Part shown: piece by piece, positions 10,556 to 45,743 of the stretch
How positions within the stretch are numbered: position 1 is the stretch's first letter
Layout: each line of letters opens with the position of its first letter
DNA from: Candidatus Krumholzibacteriia bacterium
Lineage (GTDB): Bacteria > Krumholzibacteriota > Krumholzibacteriia > LZORAL124-64-63
DNA: 64,000 nt
Assembly (NCBI GenBank): GCA_041390065.1
Contig: JAWKQQ010000022.1
Span: forward strand, 3,192 to 67,191
Direction: 5' to 3'
Notes under the pieces: generated by a model
What the model saw: only the letters and a program-made list of their open reading frames with translations
Told to the model about the DNA's origin: nothing
Databases searched by the model: none
Made by a program: the position numbers and the translations under genes

Positions 10556-12199
<1,644 letters not shown>

Positions 12200-28439: not shown

Positions 28440-28524
28440 GCCGGCGGCGCCGGAGCACCGCGAGCCACGATCCGACGGCCGCCTCTGCGGGGCGGCCGTC
28501 CCCTTGAGCCCCGAGAGGACCAGC

Positions 28525-29556: not shown

Positions 29557-29663
29557 CGCCTGGCCGGCCTTGCCGCGCCGCCGGTTCCGACCGATACGTG
29601 GGAGCGCGACGGACACCGTGCCGGTGCCTCGTCGTCGACCGTCACCACGAGAGGACCCACCCC

Positions 29664-30551
29664 ATGGCCAACGTGCTCATCACCGGCGCCAACGGCGGCT
29701 TCGGCCGGCTCGCCGTGCAGGAACTCCTGGACCGCGACCACGCCGTCGTGGCCACCATGCGCGACACGACCGGACGCAACGCCGTCGCCGCGCGCGATCT
29801 CACGGACCTGGGCGCCATCGTGGAGGACCTCGACGTCACCGCCCAGGACAGCGTCGACCGGGCCGTGGCCGCGGCCATCAGCCAGCTGGGCTACCTGGAC
29901 GCCGTCGTCAACAACGCGGGCGTCGGCACCCTTGGCGTGCAGGAGGCCTTCACGGCCGATGACTGGCGACGTCTCTTCGACGTCAACGTGTTCGGGGTGC
30001 AGCGCGTGGTGCGGGCCGTCTCGCCCCACTTCCGCCAGCGGCGGACCGGACTCATCCTGCAGATCTCCAGCCTGCTCGGCCGCGTCGCCCTGCCGTTCTA
30101 CGGCCCCTACAACGCGTCCAAGTGGGCGCTCGAGGGCATGACCGAGAGCTACCGCGTGGAACTGGCGGGATTCGGCGTGGACGTGGCGATCGTCGAGCCC
30201 GGCGGCTATCCCACCACCTTCGTCGAAGGTCTCATGCGGCCGTCGGACACCCGGCGCACGGCGGACCTCGCGGCGATGTCGGCGGCGGCCGACCGCATGC
30301 TCGAGGGCTTCGAGCAGACCATGGCCGGCAACCCCGCCCAGGATCCGCGCGCGGTGACCGCGGCCATCGCCAAGGTGATCGAGACGCCGGCCGGTCGGCG
30401 CCCGTTCCGCACGGTCGTGGACTTCCTCGGCATGGGGGACAGGATCCGGCCGTACAACGACCAGCTCGAGACGCTCACCGACGGCCTCTACACCGCCTTC
30501 GGCATCGGCCACATGCGCAGGCTGGCGACGGGCGCCGAGGGCAAGGGCTAG
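29664..30551 (+). CDS. SDR-family oxidoreductase
   Basis: In frame with track ORF 28740..30551, ATG at 29664. TGANGGFG, NNAG and YNASKWAL are present. Confidence 0.85.
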   Translation: MANVLITGANGGFGRLAVQELLDRDHAVVATMRDTTGRNAVAARDLTDLGAIVEDLDVTAQDSVDRAVAAAISQLGYLDAVVNNAGVGTLGVQEAFTADDWRRLFDVNVFGVQRVVRAVSPHFRQRRTGLILQISSLLGRVALPFYGPYNASKWALEGMTESYRVELAGFGVDVAIVEPGGYPTTFVEGLMRPSDTRRTADLAAMSAAADRMLEGFEQTMAGNPAQDPRAVTAAIAKVIETPAGRRPFRTVVDFLGMGDRIRPYNDQLETLTDGLYTAFGIGHMRRLATGAEGKG

Positions 30552-30552
30552 C

Positions 30553-31038
30553 TCAACGCAGCGGCCGCTTGATCGCCGACCAGGTCGTCCCCTGCACGGG
30601 GGCGCCCTCGACCGCGAGCCAGCCGGCGATCTCACCCTCGGGGTCGAGGTCGGTGTGGATGACCACCGACCCGTATCCGTCGAGCAGCTCGGCCACCCGC
30701 CGCTCGCTCGGCTCCCAGGAGCCGATCTTCGGCGTGCCCAGCGGCAGGTGATGGATGATGGCGCCGAAGTTCCCCGCCGGGCCCGAGTGGATGTGGGCCG
30801 CGAATTCCTCGCCCTGCAGGTCGGTATAGGTGATCTCGTACGTGATGGTGGTCCGGGAGTCGTCGAGGACGAGGCGCGCGAACCCCTCGGCGGGCGAGTC
30901 GCTCGCCAGGGCGCTGCTGTCGAGGACGGCGGTGAGGACGGTCGCGGCGGAGGCGGAGCCCGTCGCCGCCAGCATGGCCAGGAGGAGGCCGAGCGGTCGC
31001 CGGATACCGGGCGCGACGGATGATCGATGGCGGTTCAC
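30553..31038 (-). CDS. Secreted CHRD-domain protein
   Basis: In frame with track ORF 30553..31122. GTG at 31038 is preceded by AAAGGAG. Signal peptide present. AAHIHSGPAGNFGAIIHHL and VVIHTDLDPEGEIAG are typical of CHRD. Confidence 0.7.
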   Translation of the reverse strand: MNRHRSSVAPGIRRPLGLLLAMLAATGSASAATVLTAVLDSSALASDSPAEGFARLVLDDSRTTITYEITYTDLQGEEFAAHIHSGPAGNFGAIIHHLPLGTPKIGSWEPSERRVAELLDGYGSVVIHTDLDPEGEIAGWLAVEGAPVQGTTWSAIKRPLR

Positions 31039-31115
31039 GGCGGCTCCTTTCGCCGCGGCACACGTAAGCCGGGAATCGGTCCGGCCGCGATCCGTCCTTC
31101 CCGGCCACGATCCCT

Positions 31116-31144
31116 TTGACACGATCGGCGGTGGCGCGTACTAT
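31116..31144 (+). promoter_or_regulatory. Near-consensus sigma70-type promoter driving the cobalamin riboswitch
   Basis: TTGACA (31116-31121), a 17-nt spacer, then TACTAT (31139-31144). Confidence 0.55.
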
Positions 31145-31149
31145 CGGCG

Positions 31150-31350
31150 CTGTCCGTCCGGCGTCGTGTCCGGCCGGGCACACAACAACGGCGGCTCGAT
31201 GATCAGCGGAAGCCGGTGTGATTCCGGCGCGGCCCCGCCACTGTGAGCGGCGACGAACCCCGCACCATGCCACTGAGGACCCTCTCCCGGCTGGAGACGA
31301 CCTCGGGAAGGCGCGGCCAGTAGGACGACCCGCGAGCCAGGAGACCGGTC
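31150..31350 (+). promoter_or_regulatory. Cobalamin (B12) riboswitch
   Basis: The core GGAAGCCGGTGTGATTCCGGCGCGGCCCCGCCACTGTGA (B12 box GCCACTG) is followed by GCCACTG...GGGAAGG...GAGCCAGGAGACC. It lies directly upstream of a TonB-dependent receptor gene. Confidence 0.85.
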
Positions 31351-31390
31351 CCGAGCCCTTGTCCGTCACCTTCGTGGGAGAGGTACGGCA

Positions 31391-33517
31391 GTGTCGGTCC
31401 AGGGGACCGGGAGCCTCGCGCACCCTCGGGTGGCGCGTATCTTCCGACCGCATCGTCGTTTCCGGTTGCCGGCAAGCTCGCTCGCGTTCGCGTTCGCGCT
31501 CGTGGGCCTGGTCCGCGCCGTGCCCGCCGGGGCGGACCAGGCCCCGATCGCCGATCCGCCGCTCATGGCCGAGGCCGCCGCCGCCACCGTGGTGCTCGAC
31601 TCCATGGTGGTGCATGGCCGCGGCGTGGCCGAGCGCTTCTTCCCGATCGCGCCCGGCGTGGTGACGGTGGTCGAGCTGGACGACGAACGCGGCGGTGCGG
31701 ACCTCGGCGAACTGCTGGCCCGCGTGGCCGGCCTGCAGGTGCGTCGCTACGGCGGCCTCGGCGCCCAGGCGGTGCCCTCGATCCGCGGCTCGAGCGGCGC
31801 CCAGGTGCAGGTGCTGGTGGACGGCCTGCCGCTGGCCGATGCCCAGAACGGTGCCGTCGACATCTCGCTCTTGCCGCTCGAACGTTACGCCACCGCCGAG
31901 ATCCACCGCGGCCTCGTGCCGGTCGGCTTCGGCGGCATCGGCGGCGCCGGCGCCGTCGACCTGCGGACCCGGCCCGATGCCCATGGCACGAGCGTGCGGC
32001 TGTTCACCGGCAGCTTCGGCGACCTGGGCGGCCGCGTGTCCCACGGTCTGCGGTCGCGAGGCGGCCACCGGCGCCTGCTCGTGCTGGCCCACGGCCGCCG
32101 GCTCGACAACCGCTACGGGTTCACCCCGCGCATCCCCGCCGCCCAGGTCGACCTGTATCCCGACACCACCTGGACCCGCGCCAACGCCGACCTCGAGGAA
32201 TGGGGCTGGCTGGCGAGCGGCGAGCTGGAGGGTGCGCCGGGCCTCCTGCGCGCCTCGGTGGGGAGCTTCCGGCGCGACGGCGGCCGCCCCGGACCGTTCA
32301 ACCTTCCGTCGCCCCACGCCCGCGTGCGCCACGAGCGTCTGGACGCCCGCCTGGGGGCCGTCACGCGTGATCGCGACTGGACGGCGGACCTGAGCCTGGC
32401 GCGGGATCGGGGCCAGCTCATCGACACCGCCCGCGAGGTGGGGCACGACCCGGCCGGCGTCAACACGAGCGAGTCCGACGACGTGCTGGCGCGTGCGATC
32501 TGGTCGCCCTTGTGGCGCCTCGGCGCTGCCGACCTGGGCGTGACCGCCGGCGCCGAAGGCCGCCTGCAGTGGTACCGCGAATCCATCGCGGGCGACGCGC
32601 AGCCCCGGCGCAATCGCCGCAGCGTCGGCGCGTTCGCGAGCGCCAGCGTCGACCTGCCGGCCTGGCGGCTGGGTCTGACCCCGCAGTGGCGCTGGCAGCG
32701 CGTGCGCGACGACTTCCCGCCGGTGCCGAACCTGCCCTGGCTGCCGGAGGAACTGGGCGTGGTGCACCGGCAGGACGCGGTCTCGCCCGCGGTGAACGCC
32801 ACCGTCGCCATCCTGCCCGAGTCGCTCATCCTGCAGGCCCACTGGCACCACAGCGTGCGCCAGCCCACCTGGGTCGAACTGTTCGGTCAGCCCGGCGGCC
32901 TGGTGGGCAACCGGGAGCTCGTGCCCGAGGAGATCACCGGCCGCGACGTGGGCCTGCGCTGGACCCTGCCCGGCCGCAACGGCGTCCTGCGCGCCACCTG
33001 GTTCAGCCAGGTCACCGAGAAGACCATCCTCTGGTACGTCAGCGGCCTGGGACAGAGCAAGCCGTACAACGTCGGCCGGACCCGAGCCGCGGGCGTGGAG
33101 CTGGAGGGCGCGTGCACCCATCGGGCCGCCGAAGGCTACGTGGCGGCCACCTACCAGGGCGCCCATCACGGGCACGGCCAGGATCCCGTCTACCACGGCA
33201 AGCAGCTGCCCTTCCTCAGCGACTGGACCGTGTTCGCGGATCTCGGCCTGCGCCTGGACGCCTGGCGACCCGGCCTGCGTCTGCGTCACGAATCCGCGTC
33301 GTTCACCGATCTGTTCAACGACCCCGACGCCCGCGTGGCGCCCCGCACCAGCCTGGACCTGTCCCTGGCCCGCACCTTCGAGGGCGGCGTCTGGGGCGAC
33401 GGGCGGCGCGCCACCGTCACCGCCGAGGCCATCAACGTCACCGACCGGCAGCTCCACGACGTCGAAGGCTACCCCTTGCCGGGTCGGAGCCTGCGGCTGT
33501 CGCTGCACTGGCAATGA
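31391..33517 (+). CDS. btuB: TonB-dependent outer-membrane receptor (BtuB-like, riboswitch-controlled)
   Basis: Track ORF of 708 aa with GTG start after GGGAGAGG. Signal peptide present. Plug motifs: LARVAGLQVRRYGGLGAQAVPSIRGSSGAQVQVLVDGLPL. The C-terminal barrel ends in LRLSLHWQ. Confidence 0.85.
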   Translation: MSVQGTGSLAHPRVARIFRPHRRFRLPASSLAFAFALVGLVRAVPAGADQAPIADPPLMAEAAAATVVLDSMVVHGRGVAERFFPIAPGVVTVVELDDERGGADLGELLARVAGLQVRRYGGLGAQAVPSIRGSSGAQVQVLVDGLPLADAQNGAVDISLLPLERYATAEIHRGLVPVGFGGIGGAGAVDLRTRPDAHGTSVRLFTGSFGDLGGRVSHGLRSRGGHRRLLVLAHGRRLDNRYGFTPRIPAAQVDLYPDTTWTRANADLEEWGWLASGELEGAPGLLRASVGSFRRDGGRPGPFNLPSPHARVRHERLDARLGAVTRDRDWTADLSLARDRGQLIDTAREVGHDPAGVNTSESDDVLARAIWSPLWRLGAADLGVTAGAEGRLQWYRESIAGDAQPRRNRRSVGAFASASVDLPAWRLGLTPQWRWQRVRDDFPPVPNLPWLPEELGVVHRQDAVSPAVNATVAILPESLILQAHWHHSVRQPTWVELFGQPGGLVGNRELVPEEITGRDVGLRWTLPGRNGVLRATWFSQVTEKTILWYVSGLGQSKPYNVGRTRAAGVELEGACTHRAAEGYVAATYQGAHHGHGQDPVYHGKQLPFLSDWTVFADLGLRLDAWRPGLRLRHESASFTDLFNDPDARVAPRTSLDLSLARTFEGGVWGDGRRATVTAEAINVTDRQLHDVEGYPLPGRSLRLSLHWQ

Positions 33518-33543
33518 CCCGAATCCGCCACGGAGGCACCAGC

Positions 33544-34938
33544 ATGCGCACCATCCTATTCGTTCTCCTGGCCCTGATGCTCGCCGTCGGCGCGCGCGCC
33601 CAGTCGCAGGGCGCCGTCATCGCCACCGACTACGCCACCACCGCCTACGTCGCGGGCCTCGGCCTGGCCGCGCCCTGGGCCGTGGGGCCGGTGCCCGGCG
33701 AGCCGGTCTACAACGACGCCGTGGCACGTTGGCACGCGGGGCTGCTCTACGTCGTCAACCGCGGGGGCGCCGACAACGTCCAGGTGCTCGATCCCGCGCA
33801 GGGCTTCGACACCGTGCGCCAGTTCAGCCTGGGCCTCGGGCGCAACCTGCAGGACATCGGCTTCGCCACGGACGGCACGGCCTACGTCAGCTGCTACGAC
33901 ACGGCCGAGTTGCTCCACATCGACCCCGCGACGGGCCAGCTGCTGCAGGTCATCTCGACGGCCGGGTTCGCCGACGCGGACGGGCTGCCGGAGACCGGCT
34001 GGCTGCTCGTGCATGACGGCCGCCTGTTCCTGAACTGCCAGCGCCTGGACCGCGACGGCTGGTACGCCCCGGTGGGCGACAGCTACCTGCTGGTGCTCGA
34101 CACGGCCACCAACCAGTGGCTCGACGCCGATCCCGCGACGCCGGGCACGCAGGGGATCCGCCTGGGCGCCACCGACCCGATCACGCCCATCCAGCGTCGC
34201 GATGGCCGGCTGTACGTCGGCTGCGTCGGCTACTACGGCGTCAACGACGGCGGCGTGGCCGTGGTCGACCCCGTGACGCTCGCCCCGCTGGGCCTGGAGA
34301 TCACCGAGGCCGTCCTCGGCGGCGACCTCGTGTCCCTGGCCGTCACCGGCGAGACGCGCCACCTGATCGTGTCGGACGGCTCGTGGGTGACCCACGTCAT
34401 GGAATACCTGCCCGGACACATGCCCACCACCGTGGCCTCGGGCGCCGCCTACGACCACGCCGACCTGGCCTGGGACGGCGGCTTCCAGTAACTTCGTGGC
34501 CGACCGGCGCCTGGAGTGCGAGCGGCATCCGCGTGTACGACGTCGAGACAGGACAGGAGCTCACCAGCGGCCCCATCGCGACCGGCCTGCCGCCCGCCCT
34601 GGTGGTGCTGCCCGCCGCCGAGGGCGCCGTGGATGTCGAGACGCCGTCGCTGGGGGGGCTGTCCCTGGCTGCGCCGTGGCCCAACCCGGCCAATCCCACC
34701 ACGCAGGTGGCGTTCACCCGCCGCGCCGCGCGAGGCGGTCGAGCTGCGGCTCGTGGACCTGCACGGGGCCGCCTGGTCCGCCGCGCCAGGCTCGAGGCCG
34801 GCCTTGCGGGGGCGGGGCCGCTGGACCTTCGACGGCCGCGACGATCAGAGGGCCGCACGGTGGCGTCGGGTGTGTACCGCTGCGTGGTGCAGTCAGCGGG
34901 GAGGGTTCGCGGCGCGCAGCCTGACGGTCGTTCGCTAG
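33544..34938 (+). CDS. Secreted beta-propeller-like repeat protein with FlgD-Ig/T9SS-like C-terminal domain; an in-frame stop at 34489 and frame breaks lie in the last 450 nt
   Basis: The ATG at 33544 follows GGAGG. Signal peptide MRTILFVLLALMLAVGARAQ. Blade-like repeats are present (LYVVNRGGADNVQVLDP, AYVSCYDTAELLHIDPATGQ, SYLLVLDTATNQ, VAVVDPVT). After the TAA at 34489 the protein plausibly continues in other frames (GIRVYDVETGQELTSGP...LAAPWPNPANPTTQVAF | VELRLVDLHG | RLVRRARLEAGLAGAG | RWTFDGRDD | GRTVASGVYRCVVQS...LTVVR*). Confidence 0.6.
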
Positions 34939-35176
34939 GTCGTCCGGAGATGATCCGTGCCGCGTGTGATTCCGGCGTCATGGATGCGTCTCTCCCCACG
35001 ACGCCGGCCATCCGCCGATACGTCGCGGCTGGTGCGCCAAATCATCCATCGGATGGACCACCATAGCCACCATGCCGCCCCATGCCGGCCCGGAGCATCC
35101 CGCCACGCCCGATTCTGGTTGCTCCCTCGCCGCACTGCGCTAGTATTCAGCCGGTCGCCACCCTGGAGGAACGACC

Positions 35177-35750
35177 GTGCCCGTATCTATACCCGCACCG
35201 GAGACCGCGGCGAGACTGGCCTCGTCGATGGGTCGCGCACCCTCAAGTCCGACCCTCGCGTCGATGCCTACGGGGATGTCGACGAGCTCAACAGCGTGAT
35301 CGGTGGCGCTCGCTGCCCTGCCCGCCGACGTGGACGGCCTGCGGGCCGACCTCGGCGCATCCGGTCAGATCTGTTCGGCTCGGCGCCCTGCTGGCCGACC
35401 CGCCGCGGTGCGAGGCGCTGGTGGCCGGTGCGGCGGACGCGCTGCCCCTGGATGGCGGCGCCCTCGAGCCGGTGATCGATCGGCTCGGTGAAACACTGCC
35501 GCCTTTACGTGCGTTCATCCTGCCCGGTGGCATCCGGGTGCGGCGGCCTGCGTCGCGCACAGTCTACCGCCGCGTCGAGCGCCACGTGGTGGCGCTGCGG
35601 GCAGCTCAGGTGGCCATTCCCGACCCCGTGGTGGTGTACCTGAATCGCCTCAGCGACCTGCTCTTCGTCGCCGCCCGGCACGTCAACCGGGCCGCCGGCC
35701 GCGACGACGTGCTCTGGCCCGGACGCCGGGATCGCAAACCCGCGGAGTAG
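35177..35750 (+). pseudogene. pduO: PduO-type ATP:cob(I)alamin adenosyltransferase, several frame breaks
   Basis: [41 protein letters not shown] | [16 protein letters not shown] | IRSDLFG | LGALLADP...LRAFILPGG...VYRRVERHVVAL...YLNRLSDLLFVAARHVN. The GTG at 35177 after GGAGGA is out of frame by one base with the following codons. Confidence 0.8.
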
Positions 35751-35752
35751 CC

Positions 35753-36412
35753 GTGTTGCTGCGTGTCCTTTCGCCTGCCACTTTCCGTCGCCTGACCGCG
35801 AATAGCGAGGCGGGCGGTGGGGTATCCCCCCTGTCCGACCCGTCCGCCGACCTCGGTACTCCGGTGGACCCCGATCAACAGGACATCGTCCGCTTCCAGG
35901 ACGGTGATGGCGAGGGATTCGCGGCCCTGATGGAACGTTATCGGCATCGCGCCTACGGCCTGGCCCTCGGCTTCTGCGGCAACCATGACGATGCCATGGA
36001 CGCCGTGCAGAAGTCGTTCATCCGGATCCACCGCTCGCTGGGCGGCTTCCGGGTGGGCGAGCCGTTCTTCCCCTGGCTGTACCGGATCGTGCGCAACACG
36101 TCGTTCAACCAGCGGCGGGACGAGACGCGCCATCGGGGCGACTGTCCGCTGGAGTGGGTGACCGAGCCCGCCAATCTGCCCTCGCCGTTGCAGATGGCGG
36201 AGGCGGAGGAGCTGCGCCGCCGCCTCTGGGAGGCCGTCGACGGCCTGCCCGTCGAGCTGCGCGAGGTCTTCCTGCTCTACACGTTCCAGGGCCTGAAGTA
36301 CCGAGAGATCGCCGACGTGATGGCGATCCCGCTGGGCACCGTCATGTCGCGCCTGCACAGCGCGCGTCAGAAGATCCGCAAGCACCTGGGGGAGGAGGAG
36401 GTGACGGCATGA
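35753..36412 (+). CDS. ECF-type RNA polymerase sigma factor
   Basis: Track ORF. Region 2: AMDAVQKSFIRIHR...FFPWLYRIVRNTSFNQRR. Region 4: LREVFLLYTFQGLKYREIADVMAIPLGTVMSRLHSARQKI. Confidence 0.9.
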   Translation: MLLRVLSPATFRRLTANSEAGGGVSPLSDPSADLGTPVDPDQQDIVRFQDGDGEGFAALMERYRHRAYGLALGFCGNHDDAMDAVQKSFIRIHRSLGGFRVGEPFFPWLYRIVRNTSFNQRRDETRHRGDCPLEWVTEPANLPSPLQMAEAEELRRRLWEAVDGLPVELREVFLLYTFQGLKYREIADVMAIPLGTVMSRLHSARQKIRKHLGEEEVTA

Positions 36413-36870
36413 CCGACCGTCGACCCTACGACCCCGAACGCGACGGACCGCTGCTGTCGGCCTATGCCGACGGCGAGCTCGACCTCGCCGACCGCGCGCT
36501 GGTGGAGTCGTGGCTGGAACTGGACGAACGGGCCCGTCGCGAGCTTGACCGCATCGTGCAGATGAAGGCGTTCACCGACCACCTGGCCCTGCGGCCCGCG
36601 CCCCGGGAGGCCTGGGAGGAGTTTCACCGCAAGGTCTACAACCGCTCCGAGCGCAGCCTCGGCTGGAGCCTGTTCTGGATCGGCGCCGGGTGCGTGGCGC
36701 TCTACGTCGCGGTGCGCCTGCTGATCGCCATCGTGGCGCTGGCGGTGCCGGTGCTCGTACGCCTGGGGTTGCTGGCCGCGGGCCTCGGCCTGCTCATCCT
36801 GCTCGTGTCGGCCATCCGCGAGCGGCTCTTCACCCGGAAACGCGACCGTTACGACGACGTTCGCCGCTAG
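36409..36870 (+). CDS. Anti-sigma factor (single-pass/multi-TM)
   Basis: Met86 of track ORF 36154..36870; the ATG overlaps the sigma stop (ATGA). LLSAYADGELDLADRALVESWLELDERARREL is followed by hydrophobic segments. Confidence 0.7.
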   Translation: MTDRRPYDPERDGPLLSAYADGELDLADRALVESWLELDERARRELDRIVQMKAFTDHLALRPAPREAWEEFHRKVYNRSERSLGWSLFWIGAGCVALYVAVRLLIAIVALAVPVLVRLGLLAAGLGLLILLVSAIRERLFTRKRDRYDDVRR

Positions 36871-36882
36871 CGGAGGTTCGGC

Positions 36883-37203
36883 ATGCTGGTCACCACCCTG
36901 GAACAGGTTCCGGGCAAACGCATCGTCAAGGTGGTGGGCCTGGTCAAGGGCAACACCATCCGGGCGCGAGACATCGGCCATGACATCATGGCCAGCCTGA
37001 AGAACCTGGTCGGCGGCGAGATCAACGACTACACCAAGATGATCGCCGAGAGCCGCGAGCAGGCCCTCGACCGCATGGTGGCCGAGGCCCGCGCCAACGG
37101 CGCCAACGCGGTGGTCGGCATGCGCTTCGCCACCTGCGAGATGATGGAACATGCGGCCGAAATCCTGGCGTACGGGACGGCGGTGGTGCTGGAAGACGCG
37201 TGA
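36883..37203 (+). CDS. ybjQ: YbjQ/UPF0145 family protein
   Basis: Track ORF of 106 aa. LVTTLEQVPGKRIVKVVGLVKGNTIRARDIGHDIMASLKNLVGGEI...ANAVVGMRF is present. Confidence 0.85.
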   Translation: MLVTTLEQVPGKRIVKVVGLVKGNTIRARDIGHDIMASLKNLVGGEINDYTKMIAESREQALDRMVAEARANGANAVVGMRFATCEMMEHAAEILAYGTAVVLEDA

Positions 37204-37204
37204 C

Positions 37205-37298
37205 GGGGCGGCGCGAGGGGTGCGCTGGGTCCTCGCGAACGGCGGTCCTGGACGGACCGCCGTTCTGCTGCGGAGCCGTTTACCCCTCGCGCCGCCCC
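37205..37298 (+). repeat. Structured 3-prime element, copy 1: a 17-bp outer stem enclosing a conserved 49-nt core with an 11-bp inner hairpin
   Basis: GGGGCGGCGCGAGGGGT (37205-37221) pairs with ACCCCTCGCGCCGCCCC (37282-37298). Core (37227-37275): GGGTCCTCGCG AACGGCGGTCC TGGAC GGACCGCCGTT CTGCTGCGGAG. It begins 2 nt after the ybjQ stop. Confidence 0.75.
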
Positions 37299-37348
37299 GC
37301 CACGGGTCCTCCAGCACCACGGTTCCCCGCGCCGCTTCCGCCAGGCAA

Positions 37349-37450
37349 GGGGTCGGGTGGATGTCCGGGGTGCGACTCCGCAGCAGCCGGGCGGCCCGTC
37401 CAGGGCCGCCTGGCGCGAGGACCGAGCACCCCGGACATCTACCCGACCCC
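37349..37450 (-). repeat. Structured 3-prime element, copy 2 (inverted): a 25-bp outer stem enclosing the same core
   Basis: 37349-37373 pairs with 37426-37450 (one G-T pair). The reverse complement of 37376-37424 is CGGTCCTCGCG CCAGGCGGCCC TGGAC GGGCCGCCCGG CTGCTGCGGAG, which matches 40 of 49 positions of the copy 1 core by hand alignment. The outer stem overlaps the last codons and the stop of the CheA-like gene. Confidence 0.75.
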
Positions 37451-39556
37451 GTCCTTGTAGGCGAAGATCGTCGTGGGGATGGAGCGATGCTCGCCGAGGT
37501 GATAGAGCGGGGCGAGGCGCTCCAGCAGGGCGTCCACCTCGGGCTCCCGGATGGGCGTGGCCCAGAGGATCTTGACCTCGCGGCCGCAGCGGCCCTGCTC
37601 GATGTCGGCAACGCTCGGCAGGGTGGCGAGGATCTTGCCCGTCTTGCCGACGCGGCGCAGCAGCAGATAGGCGGCCAGGAAGGCGGGCTGGCGGCCCGGA
37701 TCGAACTCGAGGTAGGTCTCGTAGGTCCGCTCGCCGCGCTTGAGGGCGCTGAGGACCTGCAGCTGGGCGGTCGGCGTGAGGTCGAAGGGCTGGCGCACGA
37801 GGGCGGCGTAGTCCAGGCCGTCCTCGGCGGCCACGGTGTCGCTGTCGGTGAGCTCCTGCAGCTGGGCGAGCAGCTCGGTCGGGGGCGTGTCCGGCGCCGC
37901 GGGCAGGGTGGCGGCGGAGGCGATCAGGTAGCTGACGCCGTCGAGCAGCAGGTCCATGCGCTCGGAAGTCATCGCGAGCCGCCCCGCGCGCAGGTAGTCG
38001 AGCGCCGTCTCGAGCTGATGGGCGAAGGCGGCCTGGAGGTCGGCCTCGAGCACCGAGAAGTGGCCCTTGGCGGCGTGCAGGCGGCGGAAGGCGCGGTTCA
38101 GCTCGTCCTGCAGGTCGGGATTCTGTTCGAGGGTGAGCAGGGCGTCCTGGAGCTCGGCGAGACTCGCGGCGAGCTCATGGTGCAGGCTGCCCACGTCGTC
38201 GCCGAGGGCGCTGGCGTTGCGACGGCGCCCGACGTCGTCGGCGGATCCGGCGTCGGGGGCCTGCGGCGGCGAACTCGGGCGGGCCGCCTCCGTGGCCGCG
38301 GCCACCAGCGCCTGCGCCGTGGCGGCCTCCGGTTGGATCCCCATCGCCGCGGCGACCAGGGTGTCGACGTCGATGGTCAAGCCCAGCTTGCCGCCGGTGA
38401 AGACGGCGGTGCCGGCGACGGCGGCGTGATGACGGAGCCCCGCGTCGAGGGGGATGTTGACCAGCTTCTGGGGCCCCAGGAATTCGCTCACGATGAAGGC
38501 CACGTCGCCGGCGCGACCGTGCAGGATGATGACGGGCAGCGTGCCCGCCGGCGTGGTCGCGGCTGGCTCGCCGAGCACGGTCTCGAGGTCGTGCAGCGGG
38601 ATGATCCGGCCCTGGTAGGTGATGTGGCGGCCTCGATCGAAGGCGGTGTTCACGTCGGCGGGGTCGAGGCCGAGGTTGGCGATCACCTTGTCGATCGGCA
38701 GGGCGTAGAGATTGCTGGCGGCCCTCAAGGTCAGGGCATCGATGATGTTCACGGCGCGCAGCTTGGGCACCCGCAAGGTGAAACTGGAACCCTGGCCCGG
38801 GGCGGTGTCGAGGCTGAGCTCGCCGTCGAACTCATCCAGCACCGTGTGCACGAGGTCCAGGCCGACGCCCCGGCCGCTGGTGCCGGTCACCTGGTCGGCC
38901 GTGGTCAGGCCCGGGCGGCAGATCAGCTCGAGCAAAGGCCGCGTATCGGCGTCGGGAACTGCCAGCTTCCGGGCGGCCTGGCGGACGGCGGCCTCGTCGA
39001 TGCCGGCTCCGTCGTCGGCTACGGTGATGACGGTCTCGTGTTCACTGTCGCTGGCGCTGATGCTGACCCGGCCTTGCAGGGGCTTGCCGGCCCGTTTGCG
39101 ATCGATGGGGCTCTCGATCCCGTGGTCGATCGCGTTGCGCAGCAGATGCAGCAGCGGGTCGACGAGGTGCTCGGCCAGGGCCTTGTCGATGAGCACGTCC
39201 TCGCCCTTGAGCACGATCTCCGCGTCGCGGCCGAGGTTCCGGCACAGGTCGCGGGCGGGCCGTCGCAGCAAGCGGTAGGTCTCGTCGATCTCCACCAGGC
39301 GGATGGCCATGACCAGGTCGTGGAGCTCCTGGCTGATGCGCCGTGTGGACTGGTTGCAGGTCTTGATCAGATGCAGGCTCGCGCTGTCGGTGGTCGTGCC
39401 GGCCGCGCCATGGCCGCCGGCCCGGCGTTCGAGGTCCTGCAGGTTGGCCGCCGTGATGATCACCTCGCCGGCGAGGGAGAGGAGCGTGTCCAGATGGGCG
39501 ATGCGGACCTGCATGCGGTCGAGCGTGCGCGTCTGCTGCGTGGCGATCTCAGTCAT
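37439..39556 (-). CDS. cheA: CheA-like histidine kinase with circularly permuted domain order (P3 dimerization, P4 HATPase, P5 CheW-like, P1 HPt, then a C-terminal tail)
   Basis: Track ORF of 705 aa. VRIAHLDTLLSLAGEVII (P3); HLLRNAIDHG, DDGAGID, GRGVGLD (P4); ALPIDKVI...VAFIVSEFLGPQKLV (P5); then LNRAFRRLHAAKGHFSVL (HPt, His494, codon at about 38075-38077). Confidence 0.85.
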   Translation of the reverse strand: MTEIATQQTRTLDRMQVRIAHLDTLLSLAGEVIITAANLQDLERRAGGHGAAGTTTDSASLHLIKTCNQSTRRISQELHDLVMAIRLVEIDETYRLLRRPARDLCRNLGRDAEIVLKGEDVLIDKALAEHLVDPLLHLLRNAIDHGIESPIDRKRAGKPLQGRVSISASDSEHETVITVADDGAGIDEAAVRQAARKLAVPDADTRPLLELICRPGLTTADQVTGTSGRGVGLDLVHTVLDEFDGELSLDTAPGQGSSFTLRVPKLRAVNIIDALTLRAASNLYALPIDKVIANLGLDPADVNTAFDRGRHITYQGRIIPLHDLETVLGEPAATTPAGTLPVIILHGRAGDVAFIVSEFLGPQKLVNIPLDAGLRHHAAVAGTAVFTGGKLGLTIDVDTLVAAAMGIQPEAATAQALVAAATEAARPSSPPQAPDAGSADDVGRRRNASALGDDVGSLHHELAASLAELQDALLTLEQNPDLQDELNRAFRRLHAAKGHFSVLEADLQAAFAHQLETALDYLRAGRLAMTSERMDLLLDGVSYLIASAATLPAAPDTPPTELLAQLQELTDSDTVAAEDGLDYAALVRQPFDLTPTAQLQVLSALKRGERTYETYLEFDPGRQPAFLAAYLLLRRVGKTGKILATLPSVADIEQGRCGREVKILWATPIREPEVDALLERLAPLYHLGEHRSIPTTIFAYKDGVG

Positions 39557-39962
39557 GGCTCAACACCCGTTCGATGATCTGGGCGAGGTCCTCGCGGTTG
39601 AACGGCTTGGGAATGAAGTCGTCGGCACCGAGCTTGAGCACCCGGATCACGCTGCTGGCGTCGCTCAAGGTGGAGACCATCACGAGCGGCGTGCCGTCGT
39701 ACCAGGGGGCTTGCTGCAGTCGCCAGCAGAACTCGAAGCCGTCCATGCTGGGCATCTGGATGTCGCTGAAGATGATCGTGGTGCCGTCGATCGTGGATTC
39801 CAGGGCGAGGAGGGCCTCGCGGCCGTCGTTGTAGGCCTGGACCGCGAGGCCGAGGCCGCTCAGCTCGCGCTCGAAGATGCGCCGCATGGTGGCGCTGTCG
39901 TCGATGACGACCGCCCGGGCGCCGCCGGGCAGGGAGGTCTGCAGGCTCTCGACGTGGCTCAT
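39549..39962 (-). CDS. cheY: CheY-like single-domain response regulator
   Basis: This is the last 137 codons of track ORF 39549..40367, ATG at 39962. It has VVIDDS, FSDIQMPSMDG, MVSTLS and IPKPF. Its stop overlaps the kinase start by 8 nt. Confidence 0.85.
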   Translation of the reverse strand: MSHVESLQTSLPGGARAVVIDDSATMRRIFERELSGLGLAVQAYNDGREALLALESTIDGTTIIFSDIQMPSMDGFEFCWRLQQAPWYDGTPLVMVSTLSDASSVIRVLKLGADDFIPKPFNREDLAQIIERVLSHD

Positions 39963-40063
39963 GGCTCCATCCTTGAGGTCGGGTCCGGTCACCGGGCAGT
40001 CCTGGATATCGGCAGCATACGGCCTGCCTTTAGTCGGCCCGCGCCGTTCCGGAGCAGACGCAA

Positions 40064-40092
40064 GAGGGCCGGAGGCATGGCCTCCGGCCCTC
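40064..40092 (-). terminator. Strong GC hairpin downstream of the ferredoxin gene (terminator or attenuator candidate; no U-tract)
   Basis: GAGGGCCGGAGGC, a 3-nt loop, GCCTCCGGCCCTC (13-bp perfect stem), 22 nt after the ferredoxin stop. It is followed only by TT on the minus strand. Confidence 0.4.
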
Positions 40093-40113
40093 GAGTCTGC
40101 GTGCAGGACGCGA

Positions 40114-40287
40114 CTACTGCATGGTGATGGCCGACTCCGGGCAAACATCCACGCAGGCTTCGCAGTCGGTGCACTCATCCTGATCCACCACGGCCTTGCC
40201 GTCGACGAGGCTGATGCACTCGGTGGGGCAGGTCTCGATGCAGTCTTCGCAACCAGTGCACTTGGCGGGATCCACGAACGCGGGCAT
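40114..40287 (-). CDS. 2x[4Fe-4S] ferredoxin, 57 aa (below the ORF-track length cutoff)
   Basis: Hand translation: MPAFVDPAKCTGCEDCIETCPTECISLVDGKAVVDQDECTDCEACVDVCPESAITMQ*. It has two CxxCxxCxxxCP motifs. The ATG at 40287 is preceded by GAGGAGG. Confidence 0.85.
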   Translation of the reverse strand: MPAFVDPAKCTGCEDCIETCPTECISLVDGKAVVDQDECTDCEACVDVCPESAITMQ

Positions 40288-40343
40288 GAGGTTCCTCCTC
40301 GACTGAAAAACGGTGGCGGCCGCCCCGGCGGCGTCATGGGCGA

Positions 40344-40372
40344 ATAATGGCCCGCTCTCCGGAGCAAGTCAA
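40344..40372 (-). promoter_or_regulatory. Candidate promoter of the ferredoxin gene
   Basis: On the minus strand: TTGACT, a 17-nt spacer, then CATTAT, about 55 nt upstream of the ferredoxin ATG. Identified by eye only. Confidence 0.3.
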
Positions 40373-40425
40373 ATCACAACTCGACGGGACAGCGACTCGG
40401 AACGCCGGCGCGCTGAGGCCGGATA

Positions 40426-40878
40426 TCAGCGTTCATGACGGCGCGCGGCATCGAGCGACCAGCGGTCGCTCCGGAGGGCGAACGGCAGCAGCGCCACCAG
40501 CAGCAGGACCACGTCGCGGATCAGCAGGTCGCGGCCGACCGCATGGCCATTGCCGGTGTCGAAGCAGCCGCAGGAGATGTCCAGGTTGCGGATCAGGGCC
40601 GCGGCGATGGCCACCATGAACACCAGCAGCATGGCCGCGGCCAGGATCAGGGCGCCGCGGCGCTGCCAGCCGCAGATCAGGGCGACGGCCACCACCGCCT
40701 CGGCCACCGGCATCAGCCAGGCGAACGGATGCAGCAGGGCCATGGGCACCAGGCGGTAGTTGGCGATGTTCTGGGCGAACGCCGCCGGGTGCGCCAGCTT
40801 GTCGATGCATGCGTACAGGAAGACCGCGCCCACGCCGAGGCGGCAGAGCAGCGAGAGGGCGTCGCGCCAGCGGCTCAT
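40426..40878 (-). CDS. MauE/DoxX-family redox-associated membrane protein
   Basis: Track ORF of 150 aa. It has four hydrophobic helices and the CGCF motif (NLDISCGCFDTG) typical of MauE-like proteins. Its ATG overlaps the rhodanese stop (ATGA). Confidence 0.7.
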   Translation of the reverse strand: MSRWRDALSLLCRLGVGAVFLYACIDKLAHPAAFAQNIANYRLVPMALLHPFAWLMPVAEAVVAVALICGWQRRGALILAAAMLLVFMVAIAAALIRNLDISCGCFDTGNGHAVGRDLLIRDVVLLLVALLPFALRSDRWSLDAARRHER

Positions 40879-41375
40879 GGCGTGGCTCCGCCGGGGTTCG
40901 CCACCGGGCCGCCGGCCGCCCGCCAGGCCTCGAGGCCACCCTGGAGGATGCGCACGTCCGTATGACCGCGGGCCTGGAAGAGGACGGCCACGTCGCCGAC
41001 GGGTACGGGCGAGCCCTCGCCGTAGAGGATCAGCGGATCCTCGGGAAAGATGAACTCGCGCACCGCGTCCAGGTCGGCGGCGAAGCTGGCCGCGCGGATG
41101 ACGAACGCGCCGGGGATCGCATTGGCGAGGGTGGCTTCGGGCCGGGTATCGATGAAGACGTGCCGGCCCTCGTCGTAGGCCGCGCGGGCCTCGTCCACCG
41201 AGACCAGCGGCGCGGGCAGGTCCAGGGCGTAGAACTCGGCGTCGGCGCGCAGGGGCAGTCGGTCCGGGCGCACGAGCCAGGTGACGATCCCCACCGCCAG
41301 GATCGCCCCGACCAGGCGCAAGGCCTCGGTCACGGGCGTCGGATGGACGCGGCGGGTGCGGGTCGTGGCGGTCAC
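40875..41375 (-). CDS. Membrane-anchored rhodanese-like domain protein
   Basis: Track ORF of 166 aa. An N-terminal TM helix is followed by VFIDTRPEATLANAIPGAF ... LILYGEG ... ARGHTDVRILQGGLEAWRAAG. Confidence 0.7.
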   Translation of the reverse strand: MTATTRTRRVHPTPVTEALRLVGAILAVGIVTWLVRPDRLPLRADAEFYALDLPAPLVSVDEARAAYDEGRHVFIDTRPEATLANAIPGAFVIRAASFAADLDAVREFIFPEDPLILYGEGSPVPVGDVAVLFQARGHTDVRILQGGLEAWRAAGGPVANPGGATP

Positions 41376-41385
41376 GGCGCCAGGC

Positions 41386-42381
41386 TCACGGACGCAGGAC
41401 GTAGGTCACGGGCACCTCGAACAGCGGCGACGACGGCAGGTTCGTATGGATCCGCAGCGTGCCGGCGATCCGACCGTGCGCCGCCTGCGCGAAGGGATGA
41501 TCCATGGCCAGGGCCACGCCCTCCAGCACGGCGAACGACTCGCGCGTTCCGTTCTCCACCCTGGCCGTCAGGCCCGGGATGTCGACCTCGGCGCCGGTGA
41601 GCTTGAACTCGATGCCGGGCTCGGCCGGCGCCACGCGCACCCGCGTGCCGAGCTTCTGGCCCGACCGCGGCCGCATCAGGTTCACGCGATCCATGCCGAG
41701 GATCAGGTCGGTCACCACCCGCACGTCGGCCTCGAGGTTGACGACAGGCACGTCGGGCACGTTGGTGCGCAGCTTCAGGGGCTCGCGCCAGGTGCCCGGG
41801 GGGCTGTCCGCGCGGACGGTGAAGTCGACGTCCACGCTGTGGGGGTCGCGGCTCGGCCGCACGGCGATGTCCAGCCAGCCCTGCGGCCAGCTCACCGGCT
41901 CGATCTCGAGGGGCGAGACGTCCTTGGCCACGAAGGTGTAGGTGAGGGTCGAGGTGGCGCCGCCGCGCACCATCGGGAACCGCAGCAAGGTCTGCGCGGG
42001 CTCCATGCTCAGGGCGACCTCGATGTTGGCCTGGATCTGGAAGTCGACCACCTGGTGCCGGGGGTCATCGGTGTAGATCTTGATGAACTTGAGCTGGTGG
42101 CCCTGGAAGTGCTGGCTGTTGAACTGCACCTCCATCACCGTGCTCGCGCCGGGGCCCAGGGTGGTGACCTCCAGGTCGGGCACGGTGCAGCCGCAGGTGG
42201 CCTCCACCTTGGTGATCTCCAGCGGCGCGTCGCCCGTGTTGCTGAGCATGACGGTGGCGTCGCGGGTCTGCTGCTGGGCGAGGGTCCCGAAGTCCAGGCT
42301 CGCGGGCTCCAGCACCAGGTTGGGCTGGGACAGCGCCACCAGGGGCGCGAGCAGCATCAGGCAGGCGATGATCCGGCGCAT
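41386..42381 (-). CDS. Secreted DUF1573-like Ig-fold repeat protein
   Basis: Met86 of track ORF 41386..42636 (ATG at 42381). Signal peptide MRRIIACLMLLAPLVALS. LDFGTLAQQQTRDATVMLSNTGDAPLEITKVEATCGCTV is typical of DUF1573. Confidence 0.65.
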   Translation of the reverse strand: MRRIIACLMLLAPLVALSQPNLVLEPASLDFGTLAQQQTRDATVMLSNTGDAPLEITKVEATCGCTVPDLEVTTLGPGASTVMEVQFNSQHFQGHQLKFIKIYTDDPRHQVVDFQIQANIEVALSMEPAQTLLRFPMVRGGATSTLTYTFVAKDVSPLEIEPVSWPQGWLDIAVRPSRDPHSVDVDFTVRADSPPGTWREPLKLRTNVPDVPVVNLEADVRVVTDLILGMDRVNLMRPRSGQKLGTRVRVAPAEPGIEFKLTGAEVDIPGLTARVENGTRESFAVLEGVALAMDHPFAQAAHGRIAGTLRIHTNLPSSPLFEVPVTYVLRP

Positions 42382-42550
42382 GGACGACCTTCCGGTTGGA
42401 GTGCGGGCCGCGGCGGCTGAAGGTCCTGGAACCCGGCCCGCGGCCGCAGGTTCCCGCCGCCGGGACGATCCGTGCGGCCACGCCCAAAATTGCCCCTTTC
42501 CGGCCGGACGGCAAGCCCTTAACCTCCTGGCCAACCCGCTGGAGGCGAGC

Positions 42551-43573
42551 ATGGATCTGGAGACCGGCCTCGGCAACGTCGCGCGCGGACTGGCGCTCCT
42601 GCTGGGCGTGGTGATCGTCGGAACCATCGGTTTCATGCTGATCGAGGACTACCCCTTCCTCGACGCGGTCTACATGACCATCATCACCATCAGCACCGTG
42701 GGCTACGGGGAGGTCCGCCAGCTCGACTCCGCCGGGCACGTGTTCGTCATCGTCCTCATCGTCCTCGGCATCATGGTGGTGGGCTACACGCTGACCGCGC
42801 TCGGACGGGCGGTGGTCGAGGGGTCGCTCCAGAAACTCGTCGGGAGGAAGCGCATGCTGCGCGAGATCGGATCGATGCGGGGCCACGTGATCGTGTGCGG
42901 CCACGGACGGGTCGGGCGGACCATCTGCGAGGAGCTGCGGACCGAGGGAGTGCCGTTCGTGGTGGTCGACCGCGACCCGGAGTGCGCCGAGCAGCTGGCC
43001 GCCAAGGGCTACCGCGTGGTGGTGGGCGACGCCACCGAGGACGAGGTCCTGCTGACGGCCGGGGTGCTGCGGGCGCGCGGCCTGGTGGCCGTGGCCTCGC
43101 GTGACGTCGACAACCTGTACATCACCCTGTCGGCCCGGGAGATGTGCGCCTCGGAGAACCCCGGGCTGATGATCGTCAGCCGGGCCAGCGACACCCGGGA
43201 GCTTCGCAAGATCCGGGCGGCGGGGGCCGATCAGGTGCTCTCGCCCTACGCGATCGGCGGCGTGCGCATCGCGCAGGCGTTGATCCGGCCCGCGGTGTAC
43301 GAGGTGATCGACCTGTTGACCCGCAGCGGCGAGATGGAGCTCAGCCTGGAAGGGGCCACCCTCGGCGAAGGCTGCCGCCTGGCCGGCAAGGCCTTGCGTG
43401 ACACGAACATCCGCAGCCAGTTCAACCTCATCATCATCGGGGTCAAGAAGCCGGATGGTCACCTCCGGTTCAACCCGGGACCCGAGCACGTGCTCGAGGT
43501 CGGCGACGAGCTGATCATGCTCGGCAGCCGCGAGCAGCTCGAGCGCTTCGGTGGCAGCATCCGGACGGCCTGA
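42551..43573 (+). CDS. Two-TM potassium channel with RCK (TrkA-N/TrkA-C) domains
   Basis: In frame with track ORF 42080..43573, ATG at 42551 after GGAGG. It has the selectivity filter TISTVGYGE and a Rossmann motif VIVCGHGRVGR. Confidence 0.85.
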   Translation: MDLETGLGNVARGLALLLGVVIVGTIGFMLIEDYPFLDAVYMTIITISTVGYGEVRQLDSAGHVFVIVLIVLGIMVVGYTLTALGRAVVEGSLQKLVGRKRMLREIGSMRGHVIVCGHGRVGRTICEELRTEGVPFVVVDRDPECAEQLAAKGYRVVVGDATEDEVLLTAGVLRARGLVAVASRDVDNLYITLSAREMCASENPGLMIVSRASDTRELRKIRAAGADQVLSPYAIGGVRIAQALIRPAVYEVIDLLTRSGEMELSLEGATLGEGCRLAGKALRDTNIRSQFNLIIIGVKKPDGHLRFNPGPEHVLEVGDELIMLGSREQLERFGGSIRTA

Positions 43574-43669
43574 CCGGTAGCGGTCCGGCGCCGTGGGGTG
43601 TTATGTTGGCGGTATACATGACACCGACGGTCGAGTTTTCCGCTCGTCCGCAACCCGAGGAGTCCCGTC

Positions 43670-44647
<978 letters not shown>

Positions 44648-44717
44648 GCGACGTGGGCCTCATGCCCGGGCGATTCTTCGGCGGGGCGGACCGAGCGCCG
44701 CCCCGCGAGGTGAAACG

Positions 44718-45668: not shown

Positions 45669-45743
45669 CCCGTGGTATGCTCCCTGGACTCCGGCCGGGG
45701 GACGCGCCGGAGGTTGCCACCCCGCCTGCCTCGAGGAGCCCGC

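Follow-up and report, generated by a model that had tools for sequence, protein, structure and literature searches.

The stretch of DNA considered here, a 64,000-nucleotide (nt) piece of contig JAWKQQ010000022.1 from a Candidatus Krumholzibacteriia bacterium (hereinafter the window), carries two long palindromes side by side in the gap between two convergent genes, ybjQ and a gene for a CheA-like histidine kinase. Scans of genomes, metagenomes, viral contigs, plasmids and Rfam, together with a covariance model, establish that these palindromes belong to a real family, which is restricted to one lineage (the Krumholzibacteria) and is present at low copy number. The family has no match in Rfam and did not turn up in limited literature searches, and within that scope it is previously undescribed. 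Comparison of its copies, situated at gene 3' ends, indicates that palindrome dynamics at the level of DNA maintain, lengthen, flip and delete them. The composite interpretation that we favor, and hold to be probable though well short of secure, is that of palindromes akin to repetitive extragenic palindromes (REPs) and miniature inverted-repeat transposable elements (MITEs), which are kept paired by template switching within the palindrome and probably serve as U-tract-free hairpins at the 3' ends of transcripts. The descriptive part of this interpretation is close to certain, whereas an RNA 3'-end function, suggested by position and stability, has about an even chance of being correct.

Anatomy of the palindromes and their common apex

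A sequence-only reading of the gap had proposed one repeated structured element, in the form of a long hairpin, behind each of the two convergent genes, and folding bears this out. The RNA of copy 1, which lies behind ybjQ, folds at -129.3 kcal/mol (z -10.9) and that of copy 2, behind the CheA-like gene, at -97.4 kcal/mol (z -8.6), with none of 200 shuffles being as good in either case; for copy 1 the minimum free energy (MFE) fold is also the centroid fold. When folded as DNA, the two copies have z-scores of -12.9 and -8.5, with those of the opposite strands being -11.8 and -9.6, respectively. A covariance model built from 19 copies of the family (see below) scores them at 77.8 and 86.6 bits. 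The gap itself, which spans 235 nt between the stop codons of ybjQ (37201-37203) and CheA, contains the three strongest inverted repeats of the whole window.

The outer stems, earlier put at 17 and 25 bp, actually measure 39 bp in copy 1 and 32 bp in copy 2 (37342-37373 with 37426-37457, 88% complementary), and both extend about 20 nt into coding sequence, with the stop codons inside them (Table 1). In copy 1, the base of the left arm is formed by the final 21 nt of ybjQ (GTGGTGCTGGAAGACGCGTGA, encoding VVLEDA*), and the distal 21 nt of the right arm (37300-37320) are an inverted copy of this coding end; the VVLED ending is also kept in YbjQ orthologs that have no palindrome. In copy 2, the arm with the CheA coding end constitutes the 5' arm in the CheA transcript. 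The outer stem of copy 1 has three mismatches, namely an A.C on the TGA stop codon, an A.C in a GAA codon and a G.G. An A.C mismatch on the stop codon is seen in both window copies (TGA or TAG in the arm from the gene against TGG in the opposite one); L004, L009, L010 and L013 have a perfect mirror image of the stop codon (here and below, L-numbers are labels of comparison loci from other genomes or metagenomes).

Inside these stems, inverted-repeat and pattern searches recovered the core that the two copies had been said to share in mirror orientation (arms 37219-37278 and 37373-37432, 60 nt, 80% complementary), with the TGGAC loop and the CTGCTGCGGAG arm being identical between them. A 46-nt pattern made from both cores matches only these two sites in the window, and none of 100 dinucleotide-preserving shuffles matches it. 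The inner stems (AACGGCGGTCC/GGACCGCCGTT in one copy versus CCAGGCGGCCC/GGGCCGCCCGG in the other) differ by three fully compensated pairs and one A.C mismatch. The earlier description of the outer stems as unrelated does not hold, as the similarity of the copies continues for about 11 nt outside the 49-nt core then delimited, and the proximal parts of the stems are homologous across the family. The alternative pairing of CCTCGCG with CGCGAGG does exist in copy 1, but of the orthologous YbjQ copies, those in L004 and L013 do not have it and that in L048 (CGCGAAGG) has only an approximation of it; it is not conserved. Neither window hairpin is followed by a T-tract, in agreement with the view that they are not classic intrinsic terminators.

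Table 1. Coordinates of the palindromes and adjoining features in the window
Feature	Position	Strand	Evidence or content
Copy 1, whole palindrome/hairpin behind ybjQ (138 nt)	37183..37320	+	Inverted repeat; RNA and DNA folds; covariance model
Copy 1, left outer arm (39 nt)	37183..37221	+	Native end of the coding sequence (CDS), stop codon and 18 nt
Copy 1, right outer arm	37282..37320	+	Inverted repeat with 37183-37221, 92% complementary, 39 bp
Copy 1, conserved apex	37230..37275	+	Pattern match; invariant columns in the 19-copy alignment. TCCTCGCG 37230-37237; inner stem 37238-37248/37254-37264; TGGAC loop 37249-37253; CTGCTGCGGAG 37265-37275
Copy 2, whole palindrome/hairpin behind the CheA-like gene (116 nt)	37342..37457	-	Inverted repeat; folds; covariance model
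Copy 2, arm with the CheA coding end	37426..37457	-	Last 16 coding nt and TAG stop (37439-37441)
Copy 2, conserved apex	37376..37421	-	Pattern match; inverted repeat. TCCTCGCG 37421-37414; inner stem 37413-37403/37397-37387; TGGAC loop 37402-37398; CTGCTGCGGAG 37386-37376
Spacer separating the palindromes (21 nt)	37321..37341	.	No feature found there
ybjQ CDS (106 aa)	36883..37203	+	Pfam YbjQ_1, E = 3e-38; open reading frame (ORF) list
CheA-like histidine kinase CDS (705 aa)	37439..39556	-	Pfam H-kinase_dim, HATPase_c, CheW, Hpt, P2; 100% identical to a protein from a Candidatus Krumholzibacteriia MAG

All copies of the family share a common anatomy. The outer stem is locus-specific, nearly perfect and 21 to ~50 bp long, and a 2x2 mismatch, usually TG/GT, separates it from an asymmetric 46-nt apex comprising a G followed by TCCTCGCG, a variable inner stem of 9-12 bp with a TGRRS loop, the second arm of that stem and CTGCTGCGGAG. 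The two half-sites, TCCTCGCG of 8 nt and CTGCTGCGGAG of 11 nt, pair via UCC/GGA, a U.C mismatch, a C-G pair, a bulged U, GC/GC, another bulged U and a G-C pair, with both bulges (U/T) being on the 3' side. The borders of the apex read xxTG|TCCTCGCG at one end and GGAG|T at the other. The pentaloop is TGGAC in most copies, with TGAGC, TGAAC, TGGGC and TGAAG as variants; the variants are devoid of GGA, for which reason a CsrA/Rsm-type GGA-loop hairpin was rejected as an identification, as was a K-turn or other named internal-loop motif on account of there being no tandem G.A pairs in the apex. The proximal ~15 bp of the outer stems are homologous among paralogs (consensus ..CCCTCTCATCGCGCA followed by TG) with the similarity fading outwards, which points to a mobile or duplicated unit of ~80 nt as the ancestor. 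Most copies are single (L006, L009, L010, L019, L038); pairs, with a spacing of 146-275 nt, are confined to sites behind two convergent genes, and each member folds on itself. No T-run lies 3' of any copy.

Distribution and probable DNA-level dynamics of the family

A scan of 185,579 species, each represented by a single genome, for the pattern TCCTCGCG N9-13 TGGAC N9-13 CTGCTGCGGAG returned nine exact copies on eight contigs, all belonging to a single metagenome-assembled genome (MAG), CAZWYF01, in which a fuzzy search found a tenth copy with the loop TGAGC, for a total of 10-11. This MAG is labeled Fibrobacteraceae, yet it has a GC content of 71% and its CheA is 64.7% identical to that of the window. 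A relaxed scan of Joint Genome Institute (JGI) metagenomes yielded 32 stretches, with about 11 true copies having paired stems; the remaining ~22 matches are stemless and correspond to the chance level expected from the information content of the pattern. Viral contigs gave 0 matches to the pattern, BLAST against plasmids gave no match, and the covariance models of Rfam 15 detected nothing at E <= 1 in positions 36000-39000 of the window on both strands. The covariance model of the family itself recovered every known copy and one divergent new copy (L013, 2578-2674), with no further copy in the 64-kb window or in ~125 kb of unselected related sequence. Many copies are located at contig ends or no more than ~250 nt from them (L049, L051, L008, L007, L003, L019, L026, L033, L031). 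Such palindromes probably break short-read assemblies, and since contigs break at them, the copy numbers in MAGs are underestimates.

Covariation, counted over 41 pairs in a gapless alignment of 19 sequences, proved massive: standard pairs fill 92% of the cells as against 64.6% for column shuffles and no more than 52% with the partners slid by 1-3 columns. Both sides change in 34 of the 41 pairs, and the seven invariant pairs make up the apex helix. The pairs are almost only Watson-Crick, with wobble accounting for 3.9% of RNAfold pairs, many of them peripheral. Further, inside confidently defined stems, G.T does not outnumber A.C mismatches, which would count as wobble pairs on the antisense strand alone, and the sense and antisense RNAs of 21 copies have a mean difference in stability of -0.47 kcal/mol (Wilcoxon p = 0.20). 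Compensated changes are also found between strains with flanking CDSs that are 94-95% identical. In the L001/L033 pair (94% CDS identity), all four stem substitutions are compensated, two of these being transversion pairs; in L006/L044 two changes are compensated and one is not; and in L049/L051 a 1-bp indel of the inner stem is compensated on both arms. Thus, the stems change at about the rate of the neighboring DNA, with no visible intermediates.

The apex and the arms provide additional signs of such dynamics. L010 and L046 have CheA proteins that are 89.9% identical, left flanks identical at 57 of 60 positions and the same outer stem; the 51-nt center of L046 is the reverse complement of that of L010, junction nucleotides included, with 47/51 matches in this orientation versus 33/53 on the same strand. 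The right arms of the YbjQ copies in the window and L013 follow their own ybjQ codons (CTG versus CTT), and that of L013 perfectly mirrors its own VVLEDE* end, including the lineage-specific CTT leucine codon. In L046, the right flank mirrors the CheA codons TTIFRYEGG over ~50 bp, while that of L010 mirrors 27 bp only; on account of the unchanged intergenic length (116 vs 114 nt), the L046 flank is a templated replacement and not an insertion. In a single step, template switching can generate stems without mismatches along with substitutions that look compensatory (PMC8794818). The nearly exclusive Watson-Crick pairing, the lack of strand bias, the compensated transversions and indels, the flipped apex and the arms rewritten as inverted coding copies together point to a process at the level of DNA, and the compensatory changes are very probably signatures of palindrome dynamics rather than clear proof of a regulatory RNA. 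Hence, the compensatory inner-stem changes from which the sequence-only reading had argued for selection on structure are real, amounting to three pairs, but with pairing across the family almost only Watson-Crick and free of strand bias, they do not support selection on the structure of the sense RNA as it was stated.

The history of the copies can be followed at eleven CheA loci (nine in addition to the window and L004/L026), which a CheA identity matrix divides into clades A and B (Table 2). Between orthologous copies the apex hardly changes while the stems diverge, their two arms in concert. The CheA and YbjQ copies of the window are each more like their own orthologs than like each other, and a stem motif, GGCCGGT(G/C)GGGG, is common to the YbjQ copies of L013 from clade A and L048 from clade B. 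In the simplest history that we infer, both copies would have been present before the clades split (~63% amino acid identity in CheA), followed by at least four losses. A copy behind the GuaB gene is present in L049 and L051 (95% amino acid identity) and absent from L050 (89%), the source organism of which carries the L048 YbjQ copy; therefore gains also occur, or there was one further loss.

Table 2. Presence of the palindromes at the compared CheA and YbjQ loci
Locus	Clade	CheA copy	YbjQ copy
Window	A	present	present
L013/L034	A	present	present
L009	A	present	ybjQ not adjacent
L010	A	present	absent
L046	A	one element, apex flipped	no copy of its own
L045	A	absent	absent (13-nt gap)
L004/L026	B	present	present
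L048	B	absent	present
L047	B	absent (plain 11-bp hairpin, 32-nt gap)	absent
L011	B	absent (58-nt gap)	absent
L012	B	absent	absent (the two genes overlap)

Several sites without an element have palindromes of another kind. The element-free GuaB gene of L050 has a short palindrome, GCGCTCC-C-GGAGCGC (3989-4010), directly past its stop codon, which resembles the outermost arms (AGCGTTCC.../...GGAACGCT) of the L049 element and is either an empty target hairpin or a deletion scar. The CheA/YbjQ gap of L047 (5131-5162) holds only a hairpin, GGCTGGGCCCC-TTCGTC-GGGGCACAGCC, that may be a simple bidirectional terminator standing in for the element. In L012 (~12140-12160), a perfect 20-nt palindrome (GGTCGTCCTGCAGGACGACC) sits within the ~40 nt by which the CheA and YbjQ ORFs overlap, and the native ybjQ end in L045 (GTCGTCCTGGAGGACGAG) is a quasi-palindrome that is two substitutions away from it; the L012 palindrome may represent a template-switch 'perfection' event within coding sequence. 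A different situation is seen in L009 (11200-12308), where synteny with ybjQ is broken past the CheA element and a lower-GC segment with BrnA/CopG-type antitoxin genes starts, so that the palindrome marks a rearrangement or insertion boundary.

The genes upstream of the palindromes are unrelated housekeeping genes, including CheA, YbjQ, GuaB (IMP dehydrogenase), a major facilitator superfamily transporter, RNase E/G, a short-chain dehydrogenase, a glycosidase-like protein, among others. Wherever this could be tested, the base of the hairpin is 0-27 nt past a same-strand stop codon or over the stop, as had been noted for the window copies, and all visible downstream genes are convergent. The accompanying proposal that the element stands in the same sense after each stop codon is right to the extent that each gene has its own copy, but it is weakened by the convergent contexts, in which either orientation is sense for one of the genes, and by the flipped apex of L046; sense orientation is consequently weak evidence for a function in RNA. 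Canonical hairpin-plus-T-tract terminators are not enriched in positions 28000-47000 of the window, with one found versus 3.4 expected from shuffles and none at this locus, which suggests that the organism relies on other modes of termination.

Some further candidate identities of the element were considered and rejected. A recoding signal, comparable to the selenocysteine or pyrrolysine insertion sequences (SECIS/PYLIS), does not agree with the use of both TGA and TAG stops and with a distance from stop to apex of 13-58 nt without fixed phase; a small ORF starting from an ATG before TCCTCGCG is contradicted by the absence of this ATG in all CheA-class copies; and the G-rich 5' arm is of no use as a strand signal, as the 5' arm of a palindrome reads the same on both strands. 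As for the CheA-like kinase of the window itself, its domains are in a permuted order, with the dimerization domain, HATPase_c and CheW being followed by C-terminal Hpt and P2 domains, as opposed to the classical Hpt-P2-dimerization-HATPase-CheW order; its orthologs are listed with the same set of Pfam domains, their order not being given.

Weighing the explanations

In the interpretation that we favor, a palindromic unit of ~80 nt, comprising the apex and ~15 bp of stem, would have spread to sites 3' of genes, for the most part between convergent genes, and would then have grown outwards, with the copying of one arm from the other by intra-strand or inter-arm template switching keeping the stems paired. 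Once transcribed, the hairpins could set the 3' ends of the convergent mRNAs or shield them, either as terminators without a U-tract or as blocks to exonucleases. Such a role appears the most plausible because both convergent mRNAs would end with such a hairpin and U-tract terminators are not in excess in this region of the genome. Additionally, on account of their long perfect duplex of 21-50 bp, they are likely substrates of RNase III. The invariant asymmetric apex would be the recognition module or protein handle for a putative trans-acting protein. It is nearly invariant both among paralogs and in syntenic copies found without the pattern (L009, L010, L046, L013+, L048), even though arm-to-arm copying should symmetrize it, and this argues for a putative factor that would recognize the apex, be it in the form of a hairpin of RNA or single-stranded DNA or of a cruciform.

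A number of points weigh against this interpretation. The presence of the element is patchy among close relatives, as illustrated by L009, which has the CheA element, and L045, which has neither, their CheA proteins being 88.5% identical; this shows that the element is dispensable. The role as terminator or stabilizer is deduced purely from position and stability, and since a stem of 10-15 bp would suffice for a 3'-end role, this role does not explain the extreme length of the stems and the sequence-invariant apex. Likewise, copying between the arms should erase the bulges of the apex, yet these are invariant, and an additional factor is needed. Dispersal of an ~80-nt unit is deduced only from the proximal stem similarity among paralogs, and neither a target-site duplication nor a donor gene for it was seen. 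The conservation of the apex is itself in part a matter of ascertainment, as the scans required the pattern, yet the syntenic copies recovered independently of the pattern keep the apex.

Of the alternatives, one would regard the palindromes as cis-acting structured RNAs of the 3' untranslated region (UTR), with a regulatory or stabilizing function and bound by protein, the stems of which are kept by selection on pairing in the sense transcript. Their location directly after stop codons, with each convergent gene having a copy in its own sense, agrees with this, as do the very strong covariation, the retention of the apex at orthologous loci over deep divergence and the GGA-containing loop of most copies. 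Nevertheless, we consider it unlikely, given that sense and antisense MFE are equal (p = 0.20), that A.C within stems is at least as common as G.U and that transversion pairs and indels are compensated at 94-95% flank identity with almost no intermediates. Further, the apex is flipped in L046, the sense orientation is not discriminating as all visible contexts are convergent, the loop varies without conserving GGA, which argues against CsrA-type recognition, and no Rfam family matches. A possibility of some weight, if still a doubtful one, is that of purely selfish DNA resembling REPs and REPINs (REP doublets forming hairpins). Here the apex would be a single-stranded DNA hairpin nicked by a domesticated HUH/Y1 transposase, like the REP-associated tyrosine transposases (RAYTs), which would disperse the element and promote snap-back synthesis, flip-flop of the apex and growth of the palindrome, any effect on RNA being incidental. 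The irregular extragenic hairpin with bulged bases, its location in convergent gaps and the observed DNA-level dynamics are all compatible with this, as is the GuaB copy of L049 and L051, the absence of which from L050, in a lineage with a YbjQ copy, suggests a later gain. Persistence by vertical descent at orthologous sites is likewise a trait of REPINs in two reports (10.1101/2021.07.10.451892; 10.1101/2022.05.22.493013). However, there is no GTAG or CGTC tag of the type given as a criterion in PMC3733652, the copies number ~11 per MAG rather than hundreds, and they are single, with no doublets of fixed spacer and pairs 146-275 nt apart. The pattern of a conserved apex with a variable stem is also the reverse of that of a REPIN, and no RAYT gene turned up in ~270 kb of sequence, in which no systematic search was made. 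Old single copies kept over ~63% CheA identity are, moreover, hard to explain without a function of each copy. A long shot is that the apex is the recognition and nicking site of a dedicated structure-specific enzyme (HUH/RAYT-like or new), which would act on the extruded or single-stranded hairpin and drive snap-back synthesis within a bacterial chromosome, or else the handle of a lineage-specific system of protein-dependent formation of transcript 3' ends. If the former were true, the palindromes would be an active system that extends itself, flip-flops and replaces the ends of genes by inverted copies of these same ends; if the latter, the system would replace U-tract terminators in the Krumholzibacteria.

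Three remaining explanations are effectively excluded. An attC-like site, recombined by an integron-type or another site-specific recombinase, might be suspected from an imperfect palindrome at the 3' end of an ORF with extrahelical bases on one strand, and is very improbable in view of the lack of conserved outer R''/R' boxes, the outer part being the variable one, and of cassette arrays, the flanking genes being syntenic, convergent and housekeeping in nature. Still less credible is a single recent local inverted duplication devoid of wider significance, a possibility raised by the sequence-only reading itself: the window copies are indeed adjacent, inverted and 80% complementary, with no other copy in the window, but more than 20 copies occur behind unrelated genes in other genomes and metagenomes, and the CheA and YbjQ copies have separate orthologs that they resemble more than each other. 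The least credible of all is an artefact of assembly or amplification generating chimeric inverted junctions, as the location of many copies at contig ends might intimate, since the same apex is found inside contigs of independent projects and assemblers (NCBI MAGs, JGI and Logan) and at syntenic positions with lineage-specific compensated differences.

Beyond adding a structured repeat family to the uncultured phylum Krumholzibacteriota, the palindromes offer a natural case in which textbook 'compensatory covariation' very probably stems from template switching in DNA and not from selection on RNA pairing. This is a caution for covariation-based RNA discovery, as strong covariation alone does not demonstrate selection at the RNA level. 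They also constitute a clean system for studying the growth, flipping and loss of palindromes and their invasion of coding ends; the conserved bulged apex predicts a putative trans-acting factor; and the apparent breakage of assemblies at palindromes matters for the completeness of MAGs.

Comparison with known systems

REPs typically number tens to hundreds per genome. Like them and their assemblies, the bacterial interspersed mosaic elements (BIMEs) and REPINs, the present palindromes are dispersed extragenic imperfect hairpins, often located between convergent genes just after stop codons, with conserved hairpin irregularities and a predicted transcription into mRNA 3' ends. According to PMC3733652, a REP is a short (20-40 bp) imperfect palindrome with a GTAG or CGTC tag at one end, and according to PMC3337134, a REPIN consists of two inverted REPs with a short fixed spacer that form one hairpin. 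Vertical inheritance with persistence at orthologous sites, as described in the REPIN reports cited above, is a further shared trait. Unlike REPs, however, the family has no such tag, with GTAG arising solely from a G in front of a TAG stop codon, in the CheA copies and ahead of the L008 hairpin, has roughly ten copies rather than hundreds, and has stems of 21-50 bp that reach into coding sequence. As opposed to REPINs, in which the stems are conserved and the spacer is variable, it is the apex that is conserved here and the stem that is locus-specific, and the copies are single or variably spaced without a doublet architecture. In contrast to REP-RAYT systems, no RAYT gene was identified, and the genes adjoining the copies are housekeeping genes.

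MITE-type repeats, such as the enterobacterial repetitive intergenic consensus (ERIC) and the Neisseria Correia/nemis elements, are palindromic units of ~100-150 nt in transcribed intergenic regions that form long RNA hairpins and influence the processing of mRNA, by RNase III in the case of nemis and RNase E in that of ERIC; they have conserved terminal inverted repeats and target-site duplications. The present palindromes are comparable in the size of the unit, the intergenic location and the long hairpins, but their ends are locus-specific and their conservation is central. In a reading of the flanks, in which no dedicated scan was made, the hairpin bases showed no direct repeats that would indicate target-site duplication, the flanks being inverted copies instead. 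To our knowledge, the family has no parent insertion sequence element.

The family resembles the hairpins generated and maintained by template switching (quasi-palindrome correction; PMC8794818), in which a reverse-complement copy made at one stroke yields perfect stems and seemingly compensatory changes. The transversions and indels compensated here, and the L046 flank rewritten without a change in length, agree with this; that work, however, concerns a general mutational mechanism and no repeat family, and leaves the conserved asymmetric apex and the dispersal unexplained. Intrinsic terminators, including those of high-GC bacteria that lack a U-tract, are similar in being GC-rich hairpins directly past the stop codon between convergent genes, but the palindromes, besides having no U-tract, have stems several times longer than needed and a sequence-conserved apex common to unrelated genes. 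The terminal hairpins of parvovirus type, which exist in flip and flop forms and are processed by HUH Rep nucleases, provide an analogy only: an asymmetric apex on a constant stem in two inverted orientations, as in L010 versus L046. The palindromes differ from these in being chromosomal and internal rather than at the end of a replicon, with no Rep gene present, and an exchange between the arms, by recombination or template switching, would account equally well for the L010/L046 inversion. All told, the palindromes do not pass the tests that define REP/BIME and ERIC/Correia-type repeats, yet it is these repeats that they most resemble in the way they work.

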